A stretch of 64,000 nucleotides of DNA from a virus (lineage: Duplodnaviria > Caudoviricetes), in IMG/VR virus record IMGVR_UViG_3300031555_003155. The stretch is one strand, 5' to 3'. The notes beneath the pieces were generated by a model. That model was not told the origin of the DNA, ran no database searches, and saw only the letters and a program-made list of their open reading frames with translations. Shown in pieces: positions 4,670 through 45,760 of the stretch. Both the position numbers and the translations under genes were made by a program. Positions within the stretch are counted from its first letter, which is position 1, and every line of letters starts with the position of its first letter.

Positions 4670-6361
4670 TTATTCTCTTCTCATATCGGATTTGTTCATA
4701 ATAGAAATGTACTGATTACTTGAAATTAATAATGAAACTATTGATACTGTCGCTTTTAAGATTTCAATATCAGTAATGCACGAATTGATAATTGTATCAA
4801 CATATTCGTCTGTTATGAGATCATAACACACCAATTTATCATCATTATTATACAAGCACTTTTCTATCATAGATTCAATTTCATCATTCGACATATCGAT
4901 GAATTTATTCTTAAGTACAGTTGTATATACATTGATAAATGCCTGATAAATCATACTATATACAATATGTTCATTATCTTTAAGAGATGACGAAGTTTCG
5001 TTAAGAATATTATTAACAGTTTTAGGGATAATTAAACTACCACCACAGTTGTATCCATGCTTATATGCAGATTCACATGCCTTAATAGCATCTTCAACAA
5101 GATCGTAATTCGCTTTCTTTTCTAATGTAGAATATCCACCAACATGAATGATACCCATTGAACCTTTAAGTTTTGTGGCTCTCTGTTTAACTTCATTTAA
5201 TTTAGTATCGATTATGCCTTTATTACGATATTCTTCTTCCATAGCGTTATATTTAGCTTCAGCATCTTCAACGATTTTCTTATACATATTTTCATTTCGT
5301 TTAGTAAATCCTTTAACAAATGTAGTCTTACTATTTATAGAAATACTATCAACTTCACCAATAAAATCATATAATTTCTCTACATTAAATTCCGACGCAA
5401 CCTGTTCTGTTATTACTTCGCCACCAACCATAACTGCAAAGTCATTATACAATTCATGTGATAAGTTATTAACCAACGATACTCTAGTATATACAACATT
5501 AGATGTACCTCTAACTCTATATTCAGCCATTGTATCATTTTTAATTCTATCAAGTAAGAATGTATCATAGTTTGGCGCAACAACAACAAGTCTTCTATTG
5601 TTGGATGCAGCCAATCTCATAGCATCCTGGATAATTGGGTATGACATATCTAAATCAACTTTATGATTAAACATCAATAATGCAGGATTATCAATATCAC
5701 AAGAACCTGTATCTGTGTTTGTAAATATTGTATCGATATATGTTATATTAGCTTTATAACCACTTGATATAACTTCACATCTTGTTTCATCAGTTTTTGA
5801 CTGAATATATTCGATACTCGGATTATCGGTTTCTTTATAAATCCTTTGTATCATCGATGCGATATTATCATCACCATTTGTTGCGACATATGCAATTCGA
5901 TAAATTTCATCAAAAGTTTCTTTATTAATTTTATTAGAATTTGCATAAATTCTATCCGTGATGTTAGTTACACATTTATTAAGCAATTCCATAAAATCTT
6001 TAGGTCTAATATTATTTAAAAGGGATTTTCCTTTTTCAATTTCTGATAATATTGAATTAGCAGCAACGATTGATGATGTTGAGCCATCACCGACTTTAAT
6101 AACAACTTGGGCGCTAATTCTCAATAATAATAAAAGTATATTATTATCGATAGGGTCGTCAAATTTTATATTTTTTAATACTTGAAAACCGTCTTTTGTT
6201 ATATGCATTTCGCCATATTGTTCAATTATAGTTGTTGAGCCATATGGTCCTAATGTGTTTGTCAATACACCAGATACATAGTCAAATACCGCTCTGGTTT
6301 TAGTTCTAAATTCTTTTTCACTAATAACATTAGATGATAAGTTTAAGTTTTCTGTACTCAT
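4670..6361 (-). CDS. groEL: phage chaperonin (GroEL/Cpn60-like)
   Basis: TLGPYG, ITKDG, VGDGSTS, IHVGG...EKK...VEDA and GG motifs; no GGM tail. Confidence 0.92.
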   Translation of the reverse strand: MSTENLNLSSNVISEKEFRTKTRAVFDYVSGVLTNTLGPYGSTTIIEQYGEMHITKDGFQVLKNIKFDDPIDNNILLLLLRISAQVVIKVGDGSTSSIVAANSILSEIEKGKSLLNNIRPKDFMELLNKCVTNITDRIYANSNKINKETFDEIYRIAYVATNGDDNIASMIQRIYKETDNPSIEYIQSKTDETRCEVISSGYKANITYIDTIFTNTDTGSCDIDNPALLMFNHKVDLDMSYPIIQDAMRLAASNNRRLVVVAPNYDTFLLDRIKNDTMAEYRVRGTSNVVYTRVSLVNNLSHELYNDFAVMVGGEVITEQVASEFNVEKLYDFIGEVDSISINSKTTFVKGFTKRNENMYKKIVEDAEAKYNAMEEEYRNKGIIDTKLNEVKQRATKLKGSMGIIHVGGYSTLEKKANYDLVEDAIKACESAYKHGYNCGGSLIIPKTVNNILNETSSSLKDNEHIVYSMIYQAFINVYTTVLKNKFIDMSNDEIESMIEKCLYNNDDKLVCYDLITDEYVDTIINSCITDIEILKATVSIVSLLISSNQYISIMNKSDMRRE

Positions 6362-6388
6362 AAAATAAACCTCCTATTTATTATATAA

Positions 6389-6400
6389 TAAGTAATTGTT
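6389..6400 (-). promoter_or_regulatory. late promoter AACA-N6-TA
   Basis: AACAATTACTTA upstream of chaperonin. Confidence 0.65.
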
Positions 6401-6420
6401 GATAGTATAATAACTTTAAA

Positions 6421-7128
6421 CTAATATATTATATTTTTATCAACTCTGAATGTGCCAGATTTAAATATGTATTTTTTCATCTTTTCCTCAATCCCATCCA
6501 CATCTAATACGGCTTTCCCTTCTTTATTTTTTTTATAGTTCCAGCCACAATCTGCAATTAAAATATTTGTGTATTCAGCTTTACCAGCATTTATAATACC
6601 ATCGACTAATTTAATATCATTTATTATAAATGTGGTTATTTTCTCTTCAACGCTGTTTACGGCATCAATAAAGTCCCCAGTTATGTAATTTATTCTGTTC
6701 ATATCCTGATACGAATTTTGTATGTCTTCATGTATTCTTCTATCATATATTTCTGTGTGTATATAGATTTTTGTAACATATTTTTGTTTTAATAAGAAAT
6801 GTATACTGCTTCCTATTGCTAAATGCTTAGATTCAGAAAACATATCAGGAAAACTTGTATATAAACTGCTCATACATGCATGGTAATTAAATGGAACTTT
6901 CATGACTGTTTTTAAGATATTTTTATCTATACTCTTTACAACAAGTCCTAATAATTGACTATCGCTATAATCTTTGAACATATCGAAATCTATACAATAA
7001 TCATATCCTTTTCTATAATCTTCATTATATAGTAATCGAGTCAATAGATATGGTTTAAATGACTTTATAATATCATGATATTGTATAAATAAACATTCTT
7101 CACTATTTATATACTCATTATTTATCAT
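6421..7128 (-). CDS. hypothetical protein, possible degenerate HAD/NT5C-like fold
   Basis: LFIQYHD at motif I position, FIIND and ILIADCGWN near the C-terminus; catalytic DxD absent. Confidence 0.35.
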   Translation of the reverse strand: MINNEYINSEECLFIQYHDIIKSFKPYLLTRLLYNEDYRKGYDYCIDFDMFKDYSDSQLLGLVVKSIDKNILKTVMKVPFNYHACMSSLYTSFPDMFSESKHLAIGSSIHFLLKQKYVTKIYIHTEIYDRRIHEDIQNSYQDMNRINYITGDFIDAVNSVEEKITTFIINDIKLVDGIINAGKAEYTNILIADCGWNYKKNKEGKAVLDVDGIEEKMKKYIFKSGTFRVDKNIIY

Positions 7129-7156
7129 AAAAACTCCTCCGTTTCAAATGAAAAAA

Positions 7157-7184
7157 AAATAGAATGACAGAAGTCATTCTATTT
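7157..7184 (-). terminator. intrinsic terminator
   Basis: AAATAGAATGAC/GTCATTCTATTT stem with poly-T on the minus strand. Confidence 0.75.
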
Positions 7185-7193
7185 ATAGTTTAA

Positions 7194-7997
7194 TTAATTT
7201 AAATAATCTTCCATTTGGTCAAAGTTGCTTAATTGTGCAGCTTCTGCCATAGCTAATTCCGAGTCTTGTGTCGATTGTGAACCCCATGATGTTCTTTGTC
7301 CACTAAATCCCATACGACTAGCTCCTCTAGGTGTGACATTCGCTCCAACCTTTTCTCCAATAGATACAACAGCATCGTATAGTCTATCGTTAACGAATTT
7401 ATTTACATATCTATCAGAATGGGTTCCAGCATTGCTCATACCAACGATAGTACTCTTTAATAATTCAATAAATAATAATAATTCACTATACACCTTTGTT
7501 CCTAATGTATATTTACCTGTATTTGGGTCATAATCATCAATACTATCAATAGTTTTAAATTCATAGTATATTGACAATTCGGCTTTTTTAGTATCAGGAT
7601 TAATTCCTTTAAATAAAGCAAGGAATGGTCTGATTGAACCCGTGATACTTTTTCCTGTTCCAATAGCAATCATTCCATCATTACCAACCGCAACCCCAAT
7701 ACTTTTATCAGCATCATTTTCGATTGCAGGAATAATTTCTTTTGTAATTTTATACATTAATGACATAACTTTTTCTAAAGTTAATGATGTTTTAACAGAT
7801 TTCTCATAATCATAAAATCTATCATTGGTCTGTTTTGATGGTTCTAATGCCGGATTGATAGTTATTGTCATTTTATCATCCCAGAAACCAATATTCATTG
7901 CAGAAGGTTCGAAGCCTTCCCTATTCATAAAAGTATACCCGCGGGTATTTACACTCTGTTTGTCTTTACTATTATTTTGCTTATAACTTGAATTCAT
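7194..7997 (-). CDS. hypothetical protein, possibly ssDNA-binding
   Basis: Beta-rich core, G/S/Q-rich linker and acidic tail (FDQMEDYLN), as in SSBs; no firm motif. Confidence 0.4.
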   Translation of the reverse strand: MNSSYKQNNSKDKQSVNTRGYTFMNREGFEPSAMNIGFWDDKMTITINPALEPSKQTNDRFYDYEKSVKTSLTLEKVMSLMYKITKEIIPAIENDADKSIGVAVGNDGMIAIGTGKSITGSIRPFLALFKGINPDTKKAELSIYYEFKTIDSIDDYDPNTGKYTLGTKVYSELLLFIELLKSTIVGMSNAGTHSDRYVNKFVNDRLYDAVVSIGEKVGANVTPRGASRMGFSGQRTSWGSQSTQDSELAMAEAAQLSNFDQMEDYLN

Positions 7998-8043
7998 TAT
8001 TATTTCCTCCTAAATTTTTATTAAGTTTTAATAATAAGTTGAA

Positions 8044-8286
8044 TCATTTATTATTAATCATTTCTATAATCTGATCGTATGTGTAATTTATATCATTTAT
8101 AGTTAATATAGTGGTATCTCCTGTGATTTTAGATATATCAAACGCGTCTGAGGTTACTATTAATGTAAAATCTTTACTTAAGTTTTCATGAAATGCATTT
8201 AATTGCTTAGATAATACATCGCTCGGAATATTTTCTAACTTATCCATATCCAGTTTTATATGTATTAATGTTTTTTCTTTATCCAT
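8044..8286 (-). CDS. hypothetical protein
   Basis: 80-aa ORF with GGAGG RBS. Confidence 0.65.
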   Translation of the reverse strand: MDKEKTLIHIKLDMDKLENIPSDVLSKQLNAFHENLSKDFTLIVTSDAFDISKITGDTTILTINDINYTYDQIIEMINNK

Positions 8287-8299
8287 TATTTAATTCCTC

Positions 8300-8770
8300 C
8301 TAAATATATTTTTCTACAAACTTTGAAATTTTCTTATAAAATAATATAATATCTTTAGCCATCGCATCACATTCATTATTAAAAATGTTATCAGCATGCC
8401 CTTTGACATGAATTATATTAACATTGTGATATTCAACTAATTCAATTATTTTTTCCCATAAATCTTTATTCGCAACATCTTCACCTTTAGAATTTTTCCA
8501 TCCATTTTTCATCCAATTGATATACCATTTTTTATTGTATCCGTTGCATACGTATGATGAATCTGTAAATAAAGAAATATTTCTTTTGTCTTTAAAATAC
8601 GATAATGCCGAAATTACCGCCATCATTTCCATTCGTTGATTAGTTGTGTTAGGTTCATACCCAGAAACTTTAATAGGTTTCTGGGTATCAAAGATTATTG
8701 CAGCATAACCACCATTACCGCCAGGGTTCTTATCACAAGAACCGTCAGTATATACTATTACATTATCCAT
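8300..8770 (-). CDS. rnhA: ribonuclease HI
   Basis: YTDGS, NPGGNGG, TTNQRME, TDSSY, WKNSKGEDVANKDLW, HVKGH, NNECDAMA. Confidence 0.95.
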   Translation of the reverse strand: MDNVIVYTDGSCDKNPGGNGGYAAIIFDTQKPIKVSGYEPNTTNQRMEMMAVISALSYFKDKRNISLFTDSSYVCNGYNKKWYINWMKNGWKNSKGEDVANKDLWEKIIELVEYHNVNIIHVKGHADNIFNNECDAMAKDIILFYKKISKFVEKYI

Positions 8771-8797
8771 ACAATTATTCTCCTCAATGTTTCTACA

Positions 8798-9151
8798 TCA
8801 ATACCCGTATCTTCTAAAAAACTCACCATACGAGATATTGAGCTCTTTACATAATTTATCTATCTCCACTAAAGACTTTTTACTGTTTTCTGATTGGATT
8901 TTTCTTTTTCGTTTAGTTTGCTTATTTGCATTATCTTCACATTTTTTAGAACAATATTTTTCATCTTTTTTTGTTTGAAATATTTTATTGCAATATTCAC
9001 ATTTTATATCATGCCAAGCAGACCTTTGCTCTTTTAATTTAGCTTCATTTCTGCATTTATCGCAACAATATTTTTTATTTTTGTGAAAACTTATAAATTC
9101 TTTTTCACAATTCTTACAATATGCAATAATATCTTTCGATTTTTCTTCCAC
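8798..9151 (-). CDS. small protein with two CxxC...YCxxxC zinc-binding repeats
   Basis: CKNC...YCCDKC and CEYC...YCSKKC; C-terminal ISYG motif. Confidence 0.65.
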   Translation of the reverse strand: MEEKSKDIIAYCKNCEKEFISFHKNKKYCCDKCRNEAKLKEQRSAWHDIKCEYCNKIFQTKKDEKYCSKKCEDNANKQTKRKRKIQSENSKKSLVEIDKLCKELNISYGEFFRRYGY

Positions 9152-9174
9152 GTTAAATGCATTCCCTTCTTATA

Positions 9175-10068
9175 TTAATTAGTGGTTATAAAAGAATGAA
9201 ATCCTAAAGATTCTAATTCCGCTCGTACATTTATAGCATTTTGTTTTTTAGAAAAAGCTCCTACTTGAACTTTGTATAAATCGTTAACACGTCGAATATA
9301 AGCTTTGCCATAATTTATTCCTATATTACTTTTTAGTTTTCTAATAACTTTAAGATATTCTTTAGCCCCAGCTTCTCTACCATATGCACCGAGCTGTACA
9401 CGATAAAGTACTTTTTGTTCTTGTTTTAGTTCTTCTTTCTTTAAATATATGCACAATACATTATCTACTGGTCTATTAGTCAAATCGCGTGTAATCGAAT
9501 CACCATTTGCATCCAAGCATTTTGTACTACCACCACCATCTAAATTGATGGCATAATCACAACCTGCGTCGAGCATAATATCCTGACACTCATTTAAAGT
9601 TTTCCCTGGGTTTTCAACTAATAAAATGTATACATTTTCAGAATTATAACCTAATATAGTTCTTCTCGCTTTATAATTAATTTCATTAGCATATGAAATA
9701 TCAACTTTTTCTCGATTATCAATTAAGTTTGGAAACCCAGAAATAAAGTCAGTCCAATCTTCATAATCTAAACAACCGTATTTTAATGTATTATCCGGTA
9801 GCAAACCCATACCCCATCGATGTAGACTATAATTGGATTTAATTTCTTTATCATCCATATAATTGAATACAGTGTCACCTGTACTCATATTAAAAAATCC
9901 TGCATTTGTAATTATGTCAGGTTTAATAGTTTGTCTGTCATAGAAGTTTTTTAATGTCTCTCGCGGTTCTTTACATTTTGCAAAATCAATTTTTTCAATC
10001 TCATCTTTATCGATAATAATCAAATGTGAATTATCATGATAATTTTTAAGTACTGTCATACGAATCAT
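9175..10068 (-). CDS. phosphodiester glycosidase (NAGPA/DUF2233-like) with C-terminal SPOR domain
   Basis: NAGFF, ARRTILG, AINLDGGGS; C-terminal YRVQLGAY...YKVQVGAFSKKQNA SPOR repeats. Confidence 0.85.
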   Translation of the reverse strand: MIRMTVLKNYHDNSHLIIIDKDEIEKIDFAKCKEPRETLKNFYDRQTIKPDIITNAGFFNMSTGDTVFNYMDDKEIKSNYSLHRWGMGLLPDNTLKYGCLDYEDWTDFISGFPNLIDNREKVDISYANEINYKARRTILGYNSENVYILLVENPGKTLNECQDIMLDAGCDYAINLDGGGSTKCLDANGDSITRDLTNRPVDNVLCIYLKKEELKQEQKVLYRVQLGAYGREAGAKEYLKVIRKLKSNIGINYGKAYIRRVNDLYKVQVGAFSKKQNAINVRAELESLGFHSFITTN

Positions 10069-10089
10069 TTCCTTTCAGTCTTTATTTAA

Positions 10090-12042
10090 TTAGAGATTAA
10101 TAATATTACTAAAATACTCTTTCTTTGATGTCTTTATTGTCTCTAATCCTAAACTAGCTAATATTGGATAGAATTTTTTAAGTACATTATAAGCTAACGT
10201 ATCGTAGTCAATAAATTCTAATATCCAATCTGGTATTTTATCCAGATTTCTTGGAATTGCTATAACGGGCACACCTTTCGATGATATTCTTTTATCAGGA
10301 TGATTTAAAATATTTTTTTCTATAATATCATATATTTCACGGTTCCTGTATTTCAATTTTTGCAATTCACTCTCTTGTGTAAGAGTTAATTTAACAATAT
10401 CTACTTTTGCAGGGAGTTCTATGCTCATATCTGGGTGTAAATAATTCCATGTTATAATTGCCCTAACTCCTTGCTCTTTAAGAGGTTCAGTATATGCTCC
10501 TAACTCTTTTACTGATTTTGGAATAAGATAAGTTCTATCTCCATTTTCTAGAGATTTCATTATTTCGTTTTCAAATAGTTCTAAGTCTTGAAGGATTGTA
10601 GATATATTTATTTCTTTACTTTGAAGTACTCTCTTCTGTACTATATTCTGAAATCTGCTCTTTGTTTCTTCAGTTGCAGTAGATTTCATGAATTCATGTC
10701 CTTTTATATCTATCTTTTCTGGGAATATCTCATCACCCTCACGTAATCGTATACTAGATACATATTTCTTTTTCTTATTTGACAAAATCATTCTTGAAAA
10801 TAGGAACTCATTTTTCATATTAATTTTATCTCTATATTCTTCAGGAATATTAGCATTAAGTGTATATTTACCCAAAGAGTCACCTATCATATTGGTTATA
10901 ATATATGACATAGTATTTATAGAAATAAAACGAAGTTCTTCCCTGTCTCTATTTGAAAAATCATCATTTGGGTTTATTATTGTATTAAACATATATTCTA
11001 CCCAAGGATTTAAATTCAACATATTAGAATCAGTGTCTATAGTTATAACGCATTTTCTTTTATCATTCTTTAATCGCTGAATGCGGTTTATTGGGGAATG
11101 ATTATAAAATACGAAATCTTTATAATACTCCCACAATTCTTTTAAGTGTCCTTCAATGCTCTCAGGAACTTTATTTGGATCTTTAAATTCTGTACTATTA
11201 TAAATTATGCTTGTTAATATTTGTTGTATGATATCTATATTAGAAAATTCATATAGATTATTTTTATAATATATTTTATTTAAATCTATTTGACTTAATG
11301 AAGATAAATATTCATAAATGATCTCCGTGTACGAATCTCTATAATCATAAAACATATTTATGATTCGACTTAGTACACTGCTTATAGATACATCTGGCAA
11401 TATATTAACATCATGTGAATATTCTTCATCTAATATATTAGATATGAATGACATACACTCATTTATATTATTGAATGCAACATTATTAGCCATAAATGAT
11501 TCAAATGCCAATTCTGTTGTGCTTATCAATGACTGTCCTGTTCCTGTTACAGATGGAGCAGTATATTTATTATGAAGAAATGATATTGCATTTCCAAATG
11601 TTCCATAAATTGAGTTAGCATTAACTTTTTCAGACATCTGTTTTCTATCATATGTTTTATATTCATATGATGTTTTGTCTGGTATAAATCTAAGTTTTCC
11701 TTTGAACAATTTACGACTTGTTAAAAATTTTTGTATCATTATAGCTAACGGATTTATCACTTCATGTTGATTTTTATAAAATACACCAAATCCACCACAT
11801 ATAGGTTTAGTTGTTTTTACCCAATCATATACTTCTAATAATGAAGATTTAATACTAACATTAGCGTAGTTATTATCGATAATACACTCAGGGTTATTTA
11901 AATTATTTTTAATAATTTCATCTAAAAACAAATTAATTTCTTTTTTAGATATTTCGGGATGCATTCTTTTTAAAATCTTTCTAACTTTTCTTCTCCATTC
12001 AGTTATAAATATGTGTTTTTGTTGTTTACTCAATGAATTCAC
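10090..12042 (-). CDS. family B DNA polymerase, C-terminal half (motifs B and C, thumb)
   Basis: QMSEKVNANSIYG (motif B), TIDTDS (motif C), KKKY, IKG; no exonuclease domain or motif A. Confidence 0.85.
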   Translation of the reverse strand: MNSLSKQQKHIFITEWRRKVRKILKRMHPEISKKEINLFLDEIIKNNLNNPECIIDNNYANVSIKSSLLEVYDWVKTTKPICGGFGVFYKNQHEVINPLAIMIQKFLTSRKLFKGKLRFIPDKTSYEYKTYDRKQMSEKVNANSIYGTFGNAISFLHNKYTAPSVTGTGQSLISTTELAFESFMANNVAFNNINECMSFISNILDEEYSHDVNILPDVSISSVLSRIINMFYDYRDSYTEIIYEYLSSLSQIDLNKIYYKNNLYEFSNIDIIQQILTSIIYNSTEFKDPNKVPESIEGHLKELWEYYKDFVFYNHSPINRIQRLKNDKRKCVITIDTDSNMLNLNPWVEYMFNTIINPNDDFSNRDREELRFISINTMSYIITNMIGDSLGKYTLNANIPEEYRDKINMKNEFLFSRMILSNKKKKYVSSIRLREGDEIFPEKIDIKGHEFMKSTATEETKSRFQNIVQKRVLQSKEINISTILQDLELFENEIMKSLENGDRTYLIPKSVKELGAYTEPLKEQGVRAIITWNYLHPDMSIELPAKVDIVKLTLTQESELQKLKYRNREIYDIIEKNILNHPDKRISSKGVPVIAIPRNLDKIPDWILEFIDYDTLAYNVLKKFYPILASLGLETIKTSKKEYFSNIINL

Positions 12043-13325: not shown

Positions 13326-15164
13326 ATGAAATTTTTGGGACCAAATGTAGACAAAGATAATATAATGCTATTAGATGTTTTATATCATAATGGTAATAAA
13401 GACACAGAATATACTGATTATATTGATATTATCTACAAGAATACAAAAAGTGGAGAGAAATTATTAAAAACTATAGAAAAGCCAGAAATAGAAATTTATT
13501 TCACTAAAGAAGAATATAGAGATTATGATTATAATAAAACTTTTATGGAATTGGACAAGACAGAAAAGCATACTGTTCCATATAAATCATTGCCATGGTA
13601 TATAGCAAAACAGGCTGGAGAACAATATGTATCTCAATTAAAAAATTATATAGAATTGGGTAAATATAGAGATATATCTAAAATTCATGCATATCCATAT
13701 GTATTTGGTTCAGATTGTCCTATAGATGCATTTTATAGAGTCAATTGGTTATTAGAATATGATAATGAAGCCGAGAAGAAAGTTACAAAACAATTTCTCG
13801 ATATTGAGGTTGATACAATAGATATTGAGGGCTTCCCAAGAGATGGAGAATGTCCTATTAATGCAGTAACTATTGTTGACGAAGAAGGTATGGCATGTTA
13901 TACATTCTTATTAAATAATCCCAATAATCCTTTAATAAAAGAATTTATAGATGATATAGATTCATTTATAGATGAACTGCATGATATGTTCGATGAATCC
14001 TATGGGGTGCTGGATTATCAGATATATATGTATGATGATGAAAGAGACCTAATAATTAGCACATTTAGATTAATCAATACATTGAAGCGCGATTTTATGT
14101 TAATATGGAATGGTGGTGGGTTTGATATACCATATATGATTGAAAGAATAAAAGTATTGGGGTTGAAACCTGAAGATGTTATGTGTCATTCTGACTTTCC
14201 TGTTAAACGATGTAGATTTATTAAAGATACTAAAAACTTTGCAGTCGCGAATAAAGGTGATTGTTTAAAATTATCATCATATACTAAATATATAGACCAA
14301 ATGATATTATATGCAGCAACACGTAAAGGACAAAGCGAACTTCGTTCTCATTCATTGAACTTTATAGCACAACATGAATTAAATGATGATAAGTTAAATT
14401 ATGATGATGAAGCAAACATCAAAACTTTACCATATAAAAATTATAGAAAATTTGTAGCATATAATATAAAGGACGTTTTGCTTCAATTTGGTATCGAAAG
14501 AAAAACTAATGATGTTGATGGACTTTATTTACGTTCATATTCAAATGCAACAGATTATGATAAAATATTCAAACAAACGGTTATGCTTAAATGTCGTGCC
14601 TATTACGAATTTTTATTACAAGGCTATATTATTGGTAATAATATAAACGTCTTTATACCGAATGATGGGGAAACTTTTGCTGGGGCAATAGTTGGAGATC
14701 CGATGTTAAATTCTCATACAGGAATATCGATATTTGGTAAAAAAAGTATGTTTGTCTATGATAATGTAACAGATATGGATTTCTCTGCAATGTATCCCCA
14801 TATAATTATTGCATTTAATATTGAAAGAAATACTATGATAGGAAAACTAATTATACCAGGTTTTGAAGAGGACAGATATGAGCATTTCTATATAACAAGT
14901 AATACGGCGACACAAACAGAAGATGATGAAGAAGAGGATGATGAAAACGATTCATTATCATCAACATATGATGCTGGTAAAGACTATGTGGATAATATGT
15001 TGTGTGGAGATGTTATTAGTTTAGGAACAAAATGGCACAATTTACCTGATTTTGAAACTCTATATATGGAATTCAGAAAACAGTATAATATAAAACCAAA
15101 AGACAGATTTTCATTATCTCGTATAACGAAAAAATTTATAGAAGCAATAAAAATTGATATATAG
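13326..15164 (+). CDS. family B DNA polymerase, N-terminal half (3'-5' exonuclease + motif A)
   Basis: ExoI FLDIEV, ExoII WNGGGFDIPY, ExoIII YNIKDV, FAGAIV, motif A DMDFSAMYPHII. Confidence 0.88.
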   Translation: MKFLGPNVDKDNIMLLDVLYHNGNKDTEYTDYIDIIYKNTKSGEKLLKTIEKPEIEIYFTKEEYRDYDYNKTFMELDKTEKHTVPYKSLPWYIAKQAGEQYVSQLKNYIELGKYRDISKIHAYPYVFGSDCPIDAFYRVNWLLEYDNEAEKKVTKQFLDIEVDTIDIEGFPRDGECPINAVTIVDEEGMACYTFLLNNPNNPLIKEFIDDIDSFIDELHDMFDESYGVLDYQIYMYDDERDLIISTFRLINTLKRDFMLIWNGGGFDIPYMIERIKVLGLKPEDVMCHSDFPVKRCRFIKDTKNFAVANKGDCLKLSSYTKYIDQMILYAATRKGQSELRSHSLNFIAQHELNDDKLNYDDEANIKTLPYKNYRKFVAYNIKDVLLQFGIERKTNDVDGLYLRSYSNATDYDKIFKQTVMLKCRAYYEFLLQGYIIGNNINVFIPNDGETFAGAIVGDPMLNSHTGISIFGKKSMFVYDNVTDMDFSAMYPHIIIAFNIERNTMIGKLIIPGFEEDRYEHFYITSNTATQTEDDEEEDDENDSLSSTYDAGKDYVDNMLCGDVISLGTKWHNLPDFETLYMEFRKQYNIKPKDRFSLSRITKKFIEAIKIDI

Positions 15165-24008: not shown

Positions 24009-26219
24009 CTATTCATTCAATTCATCAAATAAATCTAATGGCATATCGTCAAGAGTTTCGTCCATATCTAAATCCATGTTTTCAGAACTGCTAACAAATT
24101 TAATATTTCTATTAAATAAATCGGATTCTCTTTGAGCTTTTGCCATTTCATTTCTTATTTTAAGTTCGTACTCATCAAGTTTTCGCGGTTGAGGAATGTT
24201 ATTTGTTTTCTTTTTGCCTGATGCCATATCCAATTCTTCATGAGTAACTAATCCTCGCTTATCTTCTATTAGTTGTTTCACATTGTCAATGACATTTATT
24301 TCATCTAATGATGTAAAGTTTACACCTTTAAAGAATTCTTTATCATTTTCTGATAAATAATCTTCCATTTGGTCATATGTCATGCCCTTATTTCGATTAT
24401 CTTCATCCGGCAATTGACCTCTAACGAAACCAAATCTGTGTAGATTATTACCGTAATAATATAAATACAGACACATAAGATAAGACATAATAGAGTCGTC
24501 GTGGAACCCTGGTCCGGCAGCGATTTTCCCTGTCTTTGTGCGAACAAGTTTCATTAAATCATTTATTATGTTATTTGTAATAAATTTATCTTTATAATCT
24601 TTTATGTGTCCTTCAAGTAAACTAAACATAAGCTCTCTTGATTTACCTTGTGTGTAAATACCATATAACTTTCTTCGTTTAGCCTCTCGAACCAACATAC
24701 CTTGTGCATCAAGTTTATCATCAATATTACTACCAACCATATCCTTACTATTATCAAAATAGATATTTCCTCGTATATCGGTATCACGCAGATGATCAAG
24801 AACTGCTTCACCATTCGCGTTTCGTTCTATCGCCAATATAGAACGGGGCAAATGTTTTCTAACCAATACATATAAGAACTTTATTAAATCCTTTACACCT
24901 ATATTTGCTGACATAAATTCTGCTGCAGGCTGAATAGTATATGGGTCGAATATAGTTACGGCAGAGTTATCTTCACCATATCCATTTGCGACATCGACCC
25001 CTATGAAATAGCATTTATCTTTACGTAAAGGCTCATATATATCTAATTTGAATAATTTATTTATAAATATCTCTTCTTTTATTTGTCCTTTCAATTCTTC
25101 TATTCGAGCCAAATCTTCCGGTTCATATGGAGATTGAGATGAACCTCTTAATCTTTGAAGGAATATTTCTCTCTTTATTTTTAATGGATTATTATTTAAC
25201 AGCGAGCATACTTTATTGAACCAAACATCATCTTTACCGAGCTGTGTATATGAATATTCTATATACACAATATTATTTCCAGAGTTTATTTCAATATATT
25301 CCTTTACATCTTCTATAGGCTTATCATAAAAATGCTCTGTCCATTTACATGTATTTTCAACAACAGCCAATGCATCCTGACCAGACTGTGAGTCTAAGTC
25401 GCCCGGTGTGCTTGTGAATACACGACAGTACATAGCATTATTTCTTTTAGCATTCTCAGATGCAGTATTATATGCAGGACCTGAGGCTTCCATAATAGTT
25501 TTAACAAAATCTATAAACTCAAACTCATCATAGTATTGGATAGGCTGAGTCGCACCACGCCCTATCTTTTCTGCTTGAACAAGAGATCTTGCTGATGATT
25601 TTGTCACTATACTATTATTATTTGAGCCGTTTTTCAAAGTTTTAACGTTATCTGTAGCTTTTATTTCATTACCCTCTTCATCATACGCAATTTTAAATTG
25701 TAAATATTTAGGTAATAAATCTCTCTGGTCTTTTAAACGAGATAAGTTTTCAATTGCTTTATCTGCAAGCATGTTTATAAACATTATTTCCGAGTCAGTT
25801 GTTCCTAATAAAAATGTCCAGTTAATTATAGCAACAGTAGACTGCGTTTTACCTATCTGACGTGGTATTACTAGGTAATGGTCTATACCATTTAAAAAAC
25901 ACCAAGTTGCTGCTAGGTTTGCTCTATTTAATTGGTATGGGACGCCTTTTGGGTTACCTTGGTCGGGTATTCTTGCAACTTCTCGTAAAAAATACCAAGG
26001 ATTGACTATACACTCATTCACAATTCTAATGATCTGGTCATTAGATAAATAAGGGGAGTATGGGTCTACTCCCCTTAATGATGGATCATATAGAGCAAGG
26101 AAAAACATATTATTTTTTATTCCTAAACGTTTTAAATCGACCGCAGTTTGAATAAAGGATATATTGGTAGTTTCTGTATCATATATATACCGGCGTTTGA
26201 CCATAATATAGTCCTCCAT
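24009..26219 (-). CDS. terL: terminase large subunit
   Basis: Walker A PRQIGKT, Walker B YYDEFEF, coupling motif TSTP, nuclease GVDVANG...DNSA, IERN, HDDSIM. Confidence 0.93.
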   Translation of the reverse strand: MEDYIMVKRRYIYDTETTNISFIQTAVDLKRLGIKNNMFFLALYDPSLRGVDPYSPYLSNDQIIRIVNECIVNPWYFLREVARIPDQGNPKGVPYQLNRANLAATWCFLNGIDHYLVIPRQIGKTQSTVAIINWTFLLGTTDSEIMFINMLADKAIENLSRLKDQRDLLPKYLQFKIAYDEEGNEIKATDNVKTLKNGSNNNSIVTKSSARSLVQAEKIGRGATQPIQYYDEFEFIDFVKTIMEASGPAYNTASENAKRNNAMYCRVFTSTPGDLDSQSGQDALAVVENTCKWTEHFYDKPIEDVKEYIEINSGNNIVYIEYSYTQLGKDDVWFNKVCSLLNNNPLKIKREIFLQRLRGSSQSPYEPEDLARIEELKGQIKEEIFINKLFKLDIYEPLRKDKCYFIGVDVANGYGEDNSAVTIFDPYTIQPAAEFMSANIGVKDLIKFLYVLVRKHLPRSILAIERNANGEAVLDHLRDTDIRGNIYFDNSKDMVGSNIDDKLDAQGMLVREAKRRKLYGIYTQGKSRELMFSLLEGHIKDYKDKFITNNIINDLMKLVRTKTGKIAAGPGFHDDSIMSYLMCLYLYYYGNNLHRFGFVRGQLPDEDNRNKGMTYDQMEDYLSENDKEFFKGVNFTSLDEINVIDNVKQLIEDKRGLVTHEELDMASGKKKTNNIPQPRKLDEYELKIRNEMAKAQRESDLFNRNIKFVSSSENMDLDMDETLDDMPLDLFDELNE

Positions 26220-26222
26220 TCA

Positions 26223-27206
26223 TTAGCGTTTTAATAATAACTCCCTATCGACAGAATATTTATCGTTATTCAGCAATTTAGCATGGTTTATAAACCACTC
26301 ATCATCATATCCTAATTCTCTATAAGAATATTCAATACCAATATAATTGGTCAAACTATCTCTGCGGAGTTTATCCTTAACCGCTTCGATAGAAAGATCG
26401 TAAAACCAATCTTCCCAATGTAGTGATGTTTCGACGAACATTGCAATTTTATCATATTCAGGCATTTCATCAGGAATTATTTCTGTTGGTAATATAGAAT
26501 ATGATTTTGTTTCCATAGGAAGTGATGTTAATAAATCTGTAGTAACTGCCATTATTTCAAAATCCGGATATACAGAAATATTGTCTTTATTTTCATTTCT
26601 AATATCTTCAATTGTGCGTTTACTAACAGGAAATTTACTAGCTTCTAATTTTATCTCACCAGTATCGACGCGAGTTATCGTATAATTTTCTTTATCATAT
26701 ATTACTTTCTTTGCCATATATTCTGGCAAAGAATCAATTATATCACAAATAAATATGAAGAAAAGATTACCGAAATTATATATATCATTAATAATAATCT
26801 TATTATAATCTTTTCCAAATAATAATTCCCACACCATCATTGCTGCAGAACAATGCATATTATATGTAAATCTAGGTGTGACTATATGGTTATTTATATT
26901 ATTTATACAGCAATATACTGATGCCAGTTTTGCTAAATCTAGTTTATACTGAGTAGTTCCACCATCTGCAGTTTTAAATCTTACAATATTTCTTAAAAAA
27001 TACCATACATTATCTTCGCATTCAGAATTTATGATAGATATTTCCCCATCAGTTAATGATGGGGAAAATATATCCAATTCATCAGCAGAAGGATTTAATG
27101 TTTTTAAAAAGAAATCATTATTCATAACATGCTTATTTTTTAATAATTCCGATACATTTACAAATGACTCGTTAATTTGCATGTTTAAACCCTCCTTATA
27201 TAACAT
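26223..27206 (-). CDS. degenerate paralog of the terminase ATPase domain
   Basis: Colinear with TerL N-half (NNDFFL/NNMFFL, NVWYFLR/NPWYFLR, IEYSYRELGYDDEWF/IEYSYTQLGKDDVWF) but Walker A and B are altered. Confidence 0.8.
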   Translation of the reverse strand: MLYKEGLNMQINESFVNVSELLKNKHVMNNDFFLKTLNPSADELDIFSPSLTDGEISIINSECEDNVWYFLRNIVRFKTADGGTTQYKLDLAKLASVYCCINNINNHIVTPRFTYNMHCSAAMMVWELLFGKDYNKIIINDIYNFGNLFFIFICDIIDSLPEYMAKKVIYDKENYTITRVDTGEIKLEASKFPVSKRTIEDIRNENKDNISVYPDFEIMAVTTDLLTSLPMETKSYSILPTEIIPDEMPEYDKIAMFVETSLHWEDWFYDLSIEAVKDKLRRDSLTNYIGIEYSYRELGYDDEWFINHAKLLNNDKYSVDRELLLKR

Positions 27207-28576: not shown

Positions 28577-30526
28577 TTATTCGTTGATAACGTAATCTGC
28601 AGAAACAACAGTGCTCGGAATCATACCTGCTTTAACAGCAATTACTTTAAGTGTGCTTGTAGCAGCGATTGTTACAGCACCGTTAACTAATTCTGATGTT
28701 GTTGTCGGCTCATTACCGTCTACAGTGTAGTAGAGATTTACTCCAGGTGTTGCACAGCTAATTGTTACTGTCTGAGCGCCTGTGTATGTACCAGCAGCTA
28801 AGCTGATTACAGGTGCAGCAACCTGAGCTGTTGCAGGAGCACTAGGATCTTTTAAACTAAACTGATTGTCAAGAATATGGAACTCACCCTGAACAGGAAG
28901 AACTTCAGTTGTAATAAATCTAGATGTACCCATAACGTTCGGAGTAAGCGGTGTTAATGCATTTCTATATGCATTTTCGATGTTCAAGCTATATTTATAG
29001 TGCTTGAATGTGATAACTTCTTTTGTAAGAGGATATGCAACAACACGGAGACCACGTGATTTCGGGCATTTCATTGTGCTGATTACATGAATTCTGTTCT
29101 TATTAGCGGTCATAACACCGAATCTGTAGTCGAGCTGAATACCACCGATCTTGGTGTCTTCATCAATTACCCAACGTACATTATCCTGGATAAGGCTGAT
29201 AAGGTTCGGATGACCATATACAACGAACATTAAGTCCTGATTACGTAATTTAACTTTTAATTCGTCAATGAAACGATTTAAGTCAAATTTTAATTCGCTG
29301 TCGATCCACTGTGATCTTGTAACGAATTTATTTGCCGGAGGTTCGCAGTTGAAGTAACCTTCTTCAACGAATCCATCAGTGTAACCGAATGGGAGGTCTT
29401 TTCTTGTTCTCCACATATCATAGCTATTATTCAAGAAACCAAGAATTTCGCTATCTTCATACTGTGTTAATACAGTACTCATATCGGCAATGATTTCTGT
29501 TGTAATATCGAAATCAAATAAAGCTTTATAATCTTTGATCTTTTCGAGTGTTAAACCAGTGTTGATACGTGTACCATCCGGAATCTTCCACTCTAAAAGT
29601 TCTCTTTCTCTGTCAAGTTCGATTGTTTCTGTGTTGTTTTCATTTGATAAGTGTCCGCCAAACTGTACCTGTGTGATGAGACCCTTAGTTGAAGCACATG
29701 AAACTAAACCGTTATAGAAGTCAACCTGACCAACGAGAATATCTTCAACGGTTGTACCGTCATCTTTTACATACTTAACTCTGTATGTAAATGAGCTGTT
29801 TGCAGCCATGTTAGGTGATACGTTCACTGCAACAGGAACAACTTCACCATCTACTGTAAGCATAACGCTCTGAATACAGAAGTCGTAAGCAAGGCTATCA
29901 CGGCGAGCGATTGAACCGCCACTTTCTTCAAGAATATTTAAATCCTGGAACGGTAATGTTGAACCGGTAGGATAATACTGTGAAGATACCTGAGCACCCT
30001 TACCTTTATTCATGATTTCTTTATATGAATCATCATAGAAGATATCCGGAATATAATACTTCTTACCAGCAGCATCTTTCAAGAAGCGTCTTTCATAAGC
30101 AGCTTTGATGATGGGCTTAGTAGGAACTTCGGTCATAACGATATCTTTTGAATGACCTTCGATATAAGATTTCTTTAAGATAGGTAAGCTGATACCAACG
30201 ATAGGAGCAAGTGCTGCTACACCAGATTCGGTAAGCATTTCGAGAGAAGAGTTCTCGAATAACTGCTCAAGTTTCTGAGGCATCATTGAATAGTAAGGAT
30301 CTTCGAAAGAGCTTTCCATTACATCGCTTAAAAGCATGTCTTTATAAGCTTCTTTCATAGTATCTACTCTAAGGATTTTTGTAATGTCCGTGATTGCATC
30401 CATTTGATAGGTGCTTTGGAATCCTTCGAACAAGTTCTTTACGTTATCTTTGAAGTCTGCATTCTTATCGTGTGAGAATGAGCCAATAACTTTAACCTGC
30501 TCAGGATTATCTAAATACTCATACAT
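28577..30526 (-). CDS. major capsid protein with C-terminal Ig-like (Fn3-associated/CHB_HEX_C-like) domain
   Basis: High-expression codon usage, propeptide ending near LTESG, own late promoter and terminator; C-terminal APVIS...YYTVDGNEPT...TLKVIAVK. Confidence 0.82.
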   Translation of the reverse strand: MYEYLDNPEQVKVIGSFSHDKNADFKDNVKNLFEGFQSTYQMDAITDITKILRVDTMKEAYKDMLLSDVMESSFEDPYYSMMPQKLEQLFENSSLEMLTESGVAALAPIVGISLPILKKSYIEGHSKDIVMTEVPTKPIIKAAYERRFLKDAAGKKYYIPDIFYDDSYKEIMNKGKGAQVSSQYYPTGSTLPFQDLNILEESGGSIARRDSLAYDFCIQSVMLTVDGEVVPVAVNVSPNMAANSSFTYRVKYVKDDGTTVEDILVGQVDFYNGLVSCASTKGLITQVQFGGHLSNENNTETIELDRERELLEWKIPDGTRINTGLTLEKIKDYKALFDFDITTEIIADMSTVLTQYEDSEILGFLNNSYDMWRTRKDLPFGYTDGFVEEGYFNCEPPANKFVTRSQWIDSELKFDLNRFIDELKVKLRNQDLMFVVYGHPNLISLIQDNVRWVIDEDTKIGGIQLDYRFGVMTANKNRIHVISTMKCPKSRGLRVVAYPLTKEVITFKHYKYSLNIENAYRNALTPLTPNVMGTSRFITTEVLPVQGEFHILDNQFSLKDPSAPATAQVAAPVISLAAGTYTGAQTVTISCATPGVNLYYTVDGNEPTTTSELVNGAVTIAATSTLKVIAVKAGMIPSTVVSADYVINE

Positions 30527-42388: not shown

Positions 42389-45300
42389 ATGATTACAATG
42401 AAGACTACAAAATATAAAAAACTCAAATGCCCTTTATGCGATGACTCATATACAAAAATAGAGGGGCTTTACGCACATATTGAAGATGAACATGATGATG
42501 AACTTCCACAAAATTATACCCCTGCAAGATATTTATATTATTTAAAAACAGGAAGAACTTCAGGAAGTTGTGTCATTGACCATAAACCAACAGATTGGAA
42601 TGAATCTACAGGGAAATATAATAGATTTTGTAATAACCCAAAATGTAAAGAAAAATATAGAGAAGAGTTTAAGAAACGCATGATGGGTAAATATGGTAAA
42701 GTTAATTTATTAAAAGACCCAGAGCAACAGAAAAAGATGTTAGCACATAGAAAAATCTCCGGAGAATATGTGTGGACTGATGGAACTAAAGTCACATATA
42801 CAGGTAGCTATGAAAAAGAATTTTTGCAGTTCTTAGACGTATTTATGAATTTTGAAAGTTCTGATATTATGGCTCCGTCACCACACACATATTACTATAC
42901 ATATAATGGAGAAAAATTATTCTACATACCAGACTTCTTTATACCATCATTAAACTTAGAAGTTGAAATAAAAGATGGTGGAGATAACGCTAATAAACAT
43001 CCAAAAATCCAAGCTGTTGATAAAGTTAAAGAAAAATTAAAAGATGAAGTTATGAAAACCCAAAAAGACTATGATTATATAAAAATAGTTAATAAAAATT
43101 ATGATAACTTCTTCGAATATTTATTATCCCAAAAAGAAAGTGTCGAGTCTAAAAAATCCGGAGCAGCAGGAACTATATTGACTGAAAGTATTAATAACTT
43201 CGATTTATTATTAGAAATGGATATTGATTATGATTTACGATTCACCAAATCAATTAAACAAACAAAAGAAATAATCGACACACTGGATGAGGAAGATATA
43301 AAGAGTATTAATATACCAAAAACTCAAAATCCAAATTATTCGATATATAGAGAGGTTGCTGTATTCGGTGGTGTTCCTGTAGCATTCATCGAAGTGTTTC
43401 AATTTCCGAATATGAAAAAAGATGAGGCTGCAATAATATTAGTATGTCGAACTGAAAAGAAATACAAAGGATATCATAATTCAGCACTACTTATAATGCG
43501 AATGCTTAATGCATTGCGTAATGAAAGCATAAGAACCGTTAAATGGGTATTTAATAACACTAATGAGAAAACGGCACTGAATAAAAAGAATTTTAAACTT
43601 AAACCGAATGGTGAAATTGTGTTGGAAGATTCTAATACAATATGTGAAGATCCTCATCTATTTCCTGGAGAAGACAAATTAAATGCGGTAAAAACTTCTA
43701 TAAAAAATGATACTGTTATAGTATTAAATATTGATGAGTTCCCACAAAATACGTTTATTACATCCGATTTGCATTTATATCGAAATAATGATGGGAGCAA
43801 CGTTGCGGAGATGGTTAAGAATATAAATGCTAATGTTAAGCATGATGATACATTAATTATTCTTGGTGACATCGGATATAAAAAAGACCCAGATATGAAA
43901 GAGCATATTGAAAGATTTTTAAACGATATAAACTGTTCTCATATATGGTTGGTTATCGGTAACCATGATATATTAGATATTGATGATTATATTGAGCTAG
44001 GATTTGAAAAGGTGTGTCATAGAATTAATTATAGAGGTCATTCGTTGACACACTACCCAATACACAATTCCGATGGAATATCTGTACATGGACATCTCCA
44101 TAATGAGTATCTTCCGTTTGAAGATGAACCTACTGACGATGAAAGATTTCGCAACGTATATTATTACACCAGACCAATTAAGAGTATTAATGAGTACATT
44201 AATGAAAATATGATTTTAGATGAAGGTCTATTTAATTTTAAAGGACGTCAATTATATTATATATCAAAAAATAAAAATGAAAAATTTAATAAATCAACAG
44301 TATTTACTGCAGATAAAAAGAAAGCATTGTCCTGGTTTATGGAACAAAATAGCAATATAAAATATAAGGAAATAAAAAAATCAGAATATTCATCATGGTT
44401 TAAAGATACGACTGAATTGGTTATTGATAAATCATTAGAAGGTAGAATAAATGATAAAGTATACCTATACACTGTTAGTAAGTCTGCATTTGATTCTATT
44501 GAAGAGTATGGTAACTATATTAAAGATATAGAAAAGCTTAATATATTAAATACGGAAGAGATTAAACTGATAGATTTGATACAGCAGGTTGGAATTAAAG
44601 TTACATTTAATACATCAAATCCTGCGGAAATATCCAATAGAAAAAAGATTGTGTCAACTCTTCGTAGCAGATTTCAATCATTAATATCTAAATCAGATTA
44701 TGTGAAATTTAAAACAACAAAAAGTTTAATTCTTGATTTAGATTCTGAGGATGTTGAGGATTTTGTTAATGGAAATTCTGATAGATTGTCATTTATTCAT
44801 TATGATTTAAATAAGTTTTACAATAATAAAGCAAGACAATATATGAATGAAGATTCAGCAAAAGAATATTCAGATCTATATAAAGCATTCACAAATGAAT
44901 TGTTATCGGATAAGACATTATCTAAAATAACTATAAAATCGGATGGTGATTGGGATGATGGTAAATACTCTGCAGTAATTAAATCTGATAATAAGAGCAT
45001 AATGGAATCATCTGAATCTTCTATATTAGAAGCTAATTTCGGTGGATTCTTAACAAAAAAAGAAATAAATCCATCAAAAATAAAAACTCCTAAAGATTTA
45101 TTAAATGTATTAAATACTTGGGGATATGGATTATTAACTAAGAATAAAGAAGTTATAACTAATGATATTGAACCCGAGCAATTCGCAGATTTATACAGAA
45201 CCATATCGCCACAAGATTTTGAAAAATATAAAGTTGGTGTGTGTTGGGACTATACTGAATATGAAAGATATTATTTCAAAAAATACTTTGATTATAAATT

Positions 45301-45760
45301 CAAGACATACTATATAGAATTGGATAATTTATCTTCATCAACTCATACATTTTTAGTGTATGAAGACTCTGGTAAATATTACTATTTTGAATCATCATAC
45401 AGAAGATATCAGGGTATACATGTATTTGAAACAATGCAGGATGTATTCAACTATGTATTAACTGCTATGTTTAGAGATGAGGGTAGAACGTATCCTTATG
45501 CTATATATGAATATACCGAAATGCCTTCAGGATTAACTACTTTAGGATTTATGGATATGCTTATAGTAAATGGTAAAAAAATATATCACACATATAAACT
45601 ATATCGTTTAACAGAAAGTGTGGATATTCCTGTATTAAAATCGGAATATCCTAAATGCACTATGAGATGTTCATTAATGAGCAAGTATGCTGATAGAGGT
45701 ATTGATTGTAGGAAAAATTGCAGACATTATGCTAATATGCTAACACACATTGAAGAATAA
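42389..45760 (+). CDS. multidomain late protein: C2H2 Zn finger + PD-(D/E)XK nuclease, GNAT-like, metallophosphoesterase, ART-like/unknown, transglutaminase/papain-like
   Basis: CPLC...H...H; YIPDFF...EVEIK; SDLH, GD, GNHD, HGHLH; GVCWD...THTFLV...YYFE. Confidence 0.75.
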   Translation: MITMKTTKYKKLKCPLCDDSYTKIEGLYAHIEDEHDDELPQNYTPARYLYYLKTGRTSGSCVIDHKPTDWNESTGKYNRFCNNPKCKEKYREEFKKRMMGKYGKVNLLKDPEQQKKMLAHRKISGEYVWTDGTKVTYTGSYEKEFLQFLDVFMNFESSDIMAPSPHTYYYTYNGEKLFYIPDFFIPSLNLEVEIKDGGDNANKHPKIQAVDKVKEKLKDEVMKTQKDYDYIKIVNKNYDNFFEYLLSQKESVESKKSGAAGTILTESINNFDLLLEMDIDYDLRFTKSIKQTKEIIDTLDEEDIKSINIPKTQNPNYSIYREVAVFGGVPVAFIEVFQFPNMKKDEAAIILVCRTEKKYKGYHNSALLIMRMLNALRNESIRTVKWVFNNTNEKTALNKKNFKLKPNGEIVLEDSNTICEDPHLFPGEDKLNAVKTSIKNDTVIVLNIDEFPQNTFITSDLHLYRNNDGSNVAEMVKNINANVKHDDTLIILGDIGYKKDPDMKEHIERFLNDINCSHIWLVIGNHDILDIDDYIELGFEKVCHRINYRGHSLTHYPIHNSDGISVHGHLHNEYLPFEDEPTDDERFRNVYYYTRPIKSINEYINENMILDEGLFNFKGRQLYYISKNKNEKFNKSTVFTADKKKALSWFMEQNSNIKYKEIKKSEYSSWFKDTTELVIDKSLEGRINDKVYLYTVSKSAFDSIEEYGNYIKDIEKLNILNTEEIKLIDLIQQVGIKVTFNTSNPAEISNRKKIVSTLRSRFQSLISKSDYVKFKTTKSLILDLDSEDVEDFVNGNSDRLSFIHYDLNKFYNNKARQYMNEDSAKEYSDLYKAFTNELLSDKTLSKITIKSDGDWDDGKYSAVIKSDNKSIMESSESSILEANFGGFLTKKEINPSKIKTPKDLLNVLNTWGYGLLTKNKEVITNDIEPEQFADLYRTISPQDFEKYKVGVCWDYTEYERYYFKKYFDYKFKTYYIELDNLSSSTHTFLVYEDSGKYYYFESSYRRYQGIHVFETMQDVFNYVLTAMFRDEGRTYPYAIYEYTEMPSGLTTLGFMDMLIVNGKKIYHTYKLYRLTESVDIPVLKSEYPKCTMRCSLMSKYADRGIDCRKNCRHYANMLTHIEE

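Follow-up and report, generated by a model that had tools for sequence, protein, structure and literature searches.

A predicted dead ATPase-domain paralog of the large terminase lies directly upstream of terL in phiKZ/AR9-like jumbo phages

We examined a stretch of 64,000 nucleotides (nt) from a virus of the Caudoviricetes (IMG/VR record IMGVR_UViG_3300031555_003155), referred to here as the window. On its minus strand, the gene of a bona fide large terminase subunit (TerL), comprising an ATPase and a nuclease domain, is directly preceded by the gene of a short paralog that corresponds to the ATPase domain of TerL (Table 1). As pointed out in the initial annotation, this is the place where the gene of the small terminase subunit (TerS) usually lies. 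Judged by its sequence, the paralog is a catalytically dead, ATPase-domain-only derivative of TerL, which is predicted to be unable to bind or hydrolyse ATP.

Table 1. Features of the terminase region and of the adjoining head genes in the window.
Feature	Position	Strand	Evidence
Paralog of the TerL ATPase domain (pseudo-ATPase), 319 amino acids	26223..27182	-	BLASTP to TerL, start backed by a Shine-Dalgarno sequence, AlphaFold2 and Foldseek; longest open reading frame to 27206
Shine-Dalgarno sequence AAGGAGG	27191..27197	-	8 nt before the paralog ATG at 27182; read from the sequence
Degenerate Walker A of the paralog, PRFTYNM for PRQIGKT	26856..26876	-	Alignment with TerL
Degenerate Walker B of the paralog, VYPDFEI for YYDEFEF, with P and D in place of the catalytic D-E pair	26553..26573	-	Alignment with TerL
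TerL (ATPase and nuclease), probable start 26204	24009..26204	-	Terminase matches phrog_32359, phrog_2 and phrog_24361; longest open reading frame to 26219
HExxH (M48-like zincin) protein, 427 amino acids	27210..28493	-	Pfam Peptidase_M48, E 1e-5
Major capsid protein (MCP)	28577..30526	-	phrog_20655 major head protein, E 4.7e-55

The paralog gene was initially annotated as 26223..27206, at a distance of 3 bp from terL. Both statements are true of the longest open reading frames (ORFs). However, the paralog is better described as a protein of 319 amino acids, since a Shine-Dalgarno (SD) sequence precedes the second ATG of its frame, and the database copy P0005 as well as the orthologs start at this codon. 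The product of terL is likely to have 731 amino acids, and because GGAGG (26217-26213) precedes its ATG by 8 nt, the spacer between the two genes is probably 18 nt and not 3. The frame of the paralog is closed by two stops in a row, TAA followed by TGA, which rules out read-through or a fusion of the paralog with TerL in the window.

By BLASTP, the paralog aligns to its own TerL with 31% identity and 48% positives over 343 columns (E 7e-39). The alignment is colinear and pairs residues 12-327 of the longest-ORF product with TerL residues 19-356, ending (DRELLLKR versus KREIFLQR) at the boundary of the ATPase domain. This bears out the earlier observation that the short gene follows roughly the first 355 residues of TerL. 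The ORF stops at the same boundary, and the C-terminal, RNase H-like nuclease domain is absent. In TerL, the motifs PRQIGKT, DE and TSTP are intact. In the paralog, both Walker motifs are degenerate, the coupling motif C reads ILPTEIIPD versus FTSTPGD in TerL, the adenine-binding YQ (Q motif) is changed to YK and the GRG arginine is lost. The replacement of Walker A, Walker B and TSTP and the missing nuclease domain, all noticed before, can be seen in this alignment. Among protein families, the paralog matches the terminase phrog_32359 (E 1.2e-18). A dedicated PHROG for dead copies was not found, as they matched only TerL PHROGs; Pfam returned no family for the paralog or for TerL, and neither Pfam nor PHROGs gave a TerS family match for the paralog.

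The AlphaFold2 (AF2) model of the paralog, calculated from a 105-row alignment, has a mean predicted local distance difference test score (pLDDT) of 96.1. Its best matches in the PDB by Foldseek are to the ATPase domain of T4 gp17 (E 3e-9, TMq 0.57-0.59, ~290 columns), followed by the ATPase domains of other TerL proteins; the entry 8dgc is also among the matches. By sequence, the family profile aligns to gp17 residues 113-292 (E 1.7e-10) across Walker A, LLPDFL, Walker B and motif C. The paralog is thus predicted to share the fold of the N-terminal ATPase domain of gp17 (PDB 2o0h, 2o0j and 3cpe), including both subdomains. Unlike gp17, it has replacements of the Walker A K/T, the Walker B D-E, motif C, the adenine-binding Q and the GRG arginine, and it lacks a nuclease.

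The divergence from TerL is unevenly spread. Identity of the paralog to its own TerL is 35% in residues 1-100, 22% in residues 101-150, 16% in residues 151-240 and 39% in residues 241-319, and is therefore highest at both ends (35-39%) and low in the nucleotide-binding core (16-22%). When live TerLs and dead copies were compared, R120, Q121 and K124 of Walker A, N158, N202, R221-G222, D231-E232 of Walker B and T271 of motif C were found to be invariant in the live proteins but free in the dead ones. Both classes conserve the N-terminal ~90 amino acids, LP.Y, YD, I.Y..LG.D..W and the terminal RE.LL.R; the N-terminal residues that are kept (paralog numbering) are N4, S6, F7, L14, N21, F24, L26, P38, E54, N58, Y61, R64 and E65. 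A conserved motif specific to the dead copies was not seen in this comparison. The window paralog is strongly acidic, with an isoelectric point (pI) of 4.7 and a net charge of -19, and is extreme in this respect. The median net charge of the dead domains is -4 versus +4 for the live ones (Mann-Whitney p 5e-8, with kinship ignored).

We found three metagenomic orthologs of the same length, at 66, 47 and 30% identity, each with an intact frame and each flanked by the HExxH gene and a complete terL. For the closest pair, the window and the related locus L006, the rate of nonsynonymous differences (pN) in the paralog is 0.209 versus 0.656 for synonymous ones (pS), although these ratios are rough since synonymous divergence is near saturation. 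As pN is well under pS, the paralog appears to be under purifying selection. In the same comparison, pN is 0.016 for the corresponding region of TerL and 0.086 for the HExxH gene. The frame thus stays intact despite heavy divergence, as first described, and neutral decay with frameshifts was not seen in the orthologs. On these sequence data, the paralog is a real, selected gene and not a pseudogene.

A dead copy lies immediately upstream of terL not only in the window but also in the related loci L003, L005, L006, L020, L022 and L023. The paralog and TerL share one reading frame in the window, L003, L006 and L020 but not in L005, L022 and L023. Elsewhere the arrangement varies. Locus L016 carries two tandem motif-dead copies (6001-7071 and 7064-8074), then a gene for 112 amino acids and then terL (8505-10691). 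In L021 the dead copy is found downstream of terL at a distance of one gene, and that of L014 is unlinked. We also considered the paralog as an alternative exon or an intron-related piece of TerL; this was ruled out, since the downstream TerL is complete on its own and the group I intron of L003 is located inside terL and not between the two genes. This intron (L003 9625-9927; Rfam RF00028, 104 bits) sits just before Walker B, and a second interruption of the L003 terL seemingly follows ...MEASG; the terL of the window is uninterrupted. In L005, the stretch from the preceding stop to the start of the conserved TerL sequence at the N-terminus (1440-1470; …GTG ATG TAA ATT GGG ATA AGA…) contains no ATG, GTG or TTG, which suggests an ATT or ATA start or re-initiation after a one-codon ORF.

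The relatives of the paralog were reached through protein collections only, and a search of viral contigs with the paralog returned no related locus. A profile built from four paralogs gave 1245 matches against 1.84 billion representatives, and motifs were scored on the best 150 of the 1245. Among these 150, all 80 full-length proteins (at least 600 amino acids) keep Walker A K[ST] and Walker B DE. At least one Walker motif is missing in 57 of the 63 short proteins (at most 420 amino acids), and both are missing in 41. Dozens of 50%-identity clusters share the ATPase-only architecture, and the predicted dead copies of phiKZ/AR9-like jumbo phages make up a broad family in metagenomes. Some members carry additional parts. 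P0009 (591 amino acids) is a fusion in which residues 4-298 form a dead TerL ATPase domain, joined to a region of BspA-type leucine-rich repeats (LRR_5, E 1e-20), and P0012, P0034, P0113 and P0128 have unrelated N- or C-terminal extensions. The C-terminal extensions of longer members were considered as remnants of the nuclease and rejected, as they have no similarity to the C-terminal half of TerL.

In ~300 cultured phiKZ-like genomes, the queries matched essentially only TerL itself. Phage BpSp gave a single profile match, and the two matches in Listeria phage LPJP1 are pieces of one interrupted TerL. A second tblastn place was obtained in ~20 cultured phage records, and LPJP1 and Vibrio phage vB_pir03 were among those inspected. 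The latter encodes a real, unlinked paralog, QNI21149.1, which is deposited as a 'hypothetical protein' of 321 amino acids (L013 5002-5967, equal to MT811961.1 188001-188966) and is shared only by the near-twin phage C-ZP2022, so that two cultured phages with such a gene were found. Like the window paralog, QNI21149.1 is a second, short paralog of the TerL N-terminus in a phiKZ-like phage with a degenerate Walker A (TPRQRGRS). Unlike it, the gene is 131 kb away from terL, just after a giant gene, and only the first ~160 residues are recognisably TerL-like (E 4e-22).

The setting of the gene pair is that of a jumbo phage. The window has a G+C content of ~29% and contains genes of the phiKZ/AR9 type. 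Its multisubunit RNA polymerase and its family-B DNA polymerase are both split, and it also encodes a GroEL-like protein, a tail sheath and a major capsid protein of the phiKZ type. A megablast search of the region against cultured phages gave no close relative. On the minus strand, the MCP gene is followed by the HExxH gene, the paralog, terL and, further downstream, the tail sheath gene, and the order MCP, HExxH protein, paralog and TerL is also found in L020, L022 (a 235.7-kb contig) and L023. Located between the MCP and the terminase genes, the HExxH gene always precedes the paralog/TerL slot. It is present in L003, L006, L020, L021, L022 and L023, with 75-86% identity in the close relatives L003 and L006, and the HExxH protein is still recognisable in LPJP1 (E 4e-5), in the same position as in the window. 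Outside the head and packaging genes, the family-B DNA polymerase is apparently split on opposite strands (10090-12042 on the minus and 13326-15164 on the plus strand; phrog_2927 and phrog_3011). The phage-encoded GroEL-like chaperonin is located at 4670-6361 on the minus strand (phrog_5725, E 7e-84). An ORF of 1123 amino acids on the plus strand (42389-45760) joins an N-terminal endonuclease family (phrog_15137, E 4e-71) to a phosphoesterase region (phrog_547).

Genes of this kind are already in print. According to Buttimer et al. (2017), an incomplete gp17 domain is present in CBB_274 of the Rak2-like phage vB_PcaM_CBB, the gene that immediately precedes the large terminase gene CBB_275 (PMC5259590). 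A 'truncated large terminase' beside terL was noted in Rak2-like phages and in the Sinorhizobium phages phiM12 and phiN3, and no function was given (PMC5259590). Like these genes, the window paralog is short, located directly upstream of terL, homologous to the ATPase part of TerL only, devoid of a nuclease and conserved within its phage group. Unlike CBB_274, which has 235 amino acids, the paralog with its 319 residues spans the whole ATPase domain, and there is no significant similarity between the two proteins (BLASTP best E 0.049 over 24 residues). A published mention of such a gene in the phiKZ/AR9-like group was not found; this lineage is what is added here.

The origin of the dead copies was addressed with a FastTree phylogeny of 152 rows and a quick IQ-TREE with a mixture model of 57 rows, rooted on the TerL of CBB. 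Between four and seven changes between live and dead are needed on the trees, and several dead copies cluster with TerL of the respective lineage (support 97 for the L016 copies, 100 for P0048 and 99 for P0091). This suggests several independent, recurrent duplications, although the pattern could also result from long branches and from gene conversion between a copy and the neighbouring terL, and one old origin is possible. Being 31% identical to its own TerL, the window copy has most likely arisen independently inside the phiKZ/AR9-like lineage. It resembles the TerLs of its own lineage most closely, and no similarity to CBB_274 was detected. It is therefore the same kind of gene, which most likely arose separately in this group.

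Our preferred reading, which we hold tentatively, is that the paralog is a pseudoenzyme acting as a non-catalytic partner of the terminase or the portal. It would be an accessory regulator of packaging rather than a DNA-recognising TerS. The gene may have originated when the 5' half of terL was duplicated in tandem. It would be co-transcribed with terL and translated just ahead of TerL, and the SD-backed starts and the 18-nt spacer fit such a co-expression. The product may then act stoichiometrically in DNA packaging, using the non-catalytic surfaces that it shares with TerL, i.e. the N-terminal ~90 residues and the C-terminal subdomain beside the hinge. These surfaces may allow it to contact the same partners as the TerL ATPase domain, either TerL itself or the portal clip, and thereby to modulate the assembly or activity of the packaging motor. 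Binding to a partner of the TerL ATPase domain is the most economical reading, because the fold and the non-catalytic patches are kept as in TerL and the gene seems to be expressed together with it. In T4, the portal carries the ATPase ring, and the site of contact maps to a helix-loop-helix next to the hinge (PMC9958956). By position, and not by a residue-level alignment, this site may correspond to the conserved C-terminal block of the paralog. When the complex of TerL(1-675) and the paralog was predicted from alignments of both, the score stayed below the mark, which counts neither for nor against binding.

Parallels to this role can be found in other systems. TerS, e.g. T4 gp16, has a regulatory role towards TerL (PMC9958956), which the paralog may share, and like the paralog it is encoded directly upstream of terL. 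However, fold and size of the paralog are unrelated to TerS, and it is acidic, where a DNA-binding helix-turn-helix protein would not be. Its strong acidity, shared in milder form by the dead copies as a group, therefore argues against a DNA-binding, TerS-like role. In the clamp-loader subunits delta and delta' and in F1 alpha, duplicated P-loop ATPase subunits have no catalysis and keep fold and interfaces. The likeness is a mechanistic analogy and does not imply entry of the paralog into the ring, and unlike those subunits the dead copy is not universal among relatives.

Several observations weigh against the role as packaging partner. With a pN of 0.209 versus 0.016, the paralog evolves ~13 times faster than the corresponding part of TerL, an unusual rate for an obligate subunit of the motor. 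The number and the location of the copies differ between phages, with two copies in L016, a downstream copy in L021 and unlinked copies in L014 and pir03. The cultured relatives checked, BpSp and LPJP1, are apparently without a paralog, so that it would be accessory at most. Fast evolution, patchy distribution and variable copy number thus speak against an obligate subunit and fit an accessory or a conflict role equally. We consider it rather unlikely that jumbo phages without a recognisable TerS have repeatedly and independently turned a duplicated TerL ATPase domain into a dead, integral regulatory subunit, which might for instance gate the docking of TerL on the portal or restrain its nuclease.

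The same features bring up a conflict gene, which we regard as possible but improbable. The dead domain might sponge or mask a host sensor of TerL, such as the Avs1-3-type STAND NTPases, or act as a dominant negative that poisons a rival phage or satellite at its terminase or portal. Such a function would be in line with an evolution that is fast relative to TerL and the neighbouring genes, the patchy distribution with apparently several independent origins, the variable copy number and location, the member fused to BspA-type repeats and the acidic shift of the group. In addition, Avs3 is known to bind a TerL, and 8dgc is among the fold matches. On the other hand, pN well below pS indicates overall purifying and not diversifying selection, the gene is predicted to be expressed with TerL rather than early, and its preferred place inside the head and packaging module suits a morphogenetic role. 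The literature searched contains no report of terminase decoys. The Avs decoy offered in the initial annotation is unsupported and mechanistically awkward. Avs sensors are switched on by binding the target fold (PMC13581612), and an extra copy should therefore raise detection, unless it binds without activation.

A role outside packaging is less probable still. The paralog could be a neofunctionalised structural or scaffold protein that uses nothing but the ATPase fold, e.g. in head assembly near the MCP and the HExxH protein. Its location in the head module directly after these two genes, the absence of catalytic motifs and the unrelated extensions of some members would agree with this. However, a motif specific to the dead copies was not seen, and the conserved parts are the same as in TerL, which points to a partner in common with TerL and not to a new one. 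Finally, the loss of all catalytic motifs and the fast divergence could be expected of a decaying, functionless remnant of a recent partial duplication. We consider this highly improbable, as the frame is open in orthologs down to 30% identity, length and ends are conserved in at least seven lineages, and pN is far below pS (0.21 versus 0.66). Moreover, the gene has a strong SD sequence of its own, the AF2 fold is very confident, and dozens of 50%-identity clusters have the same architecture.

To our knowledge, no small terminase has been recognised in phiKZ/AR9-like jumbo phages. A conserved pseudo-ATPase copy of the motor protein beside terL is an obvious candidate for the missing packaging accessory factor of these phages. 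Alternatively, the terminase fold may have been put to use here in a conflict gene of a new type. Since the same architecture is present in the Rak2-like, phiM12-like and phiKZ/AR9-like lineages, one cultivable carrier would inform the whole gene class. If the paralog is indeed a dead regulatory subunit, it would define a new, TerL-derived class of terminase accessory subunits.

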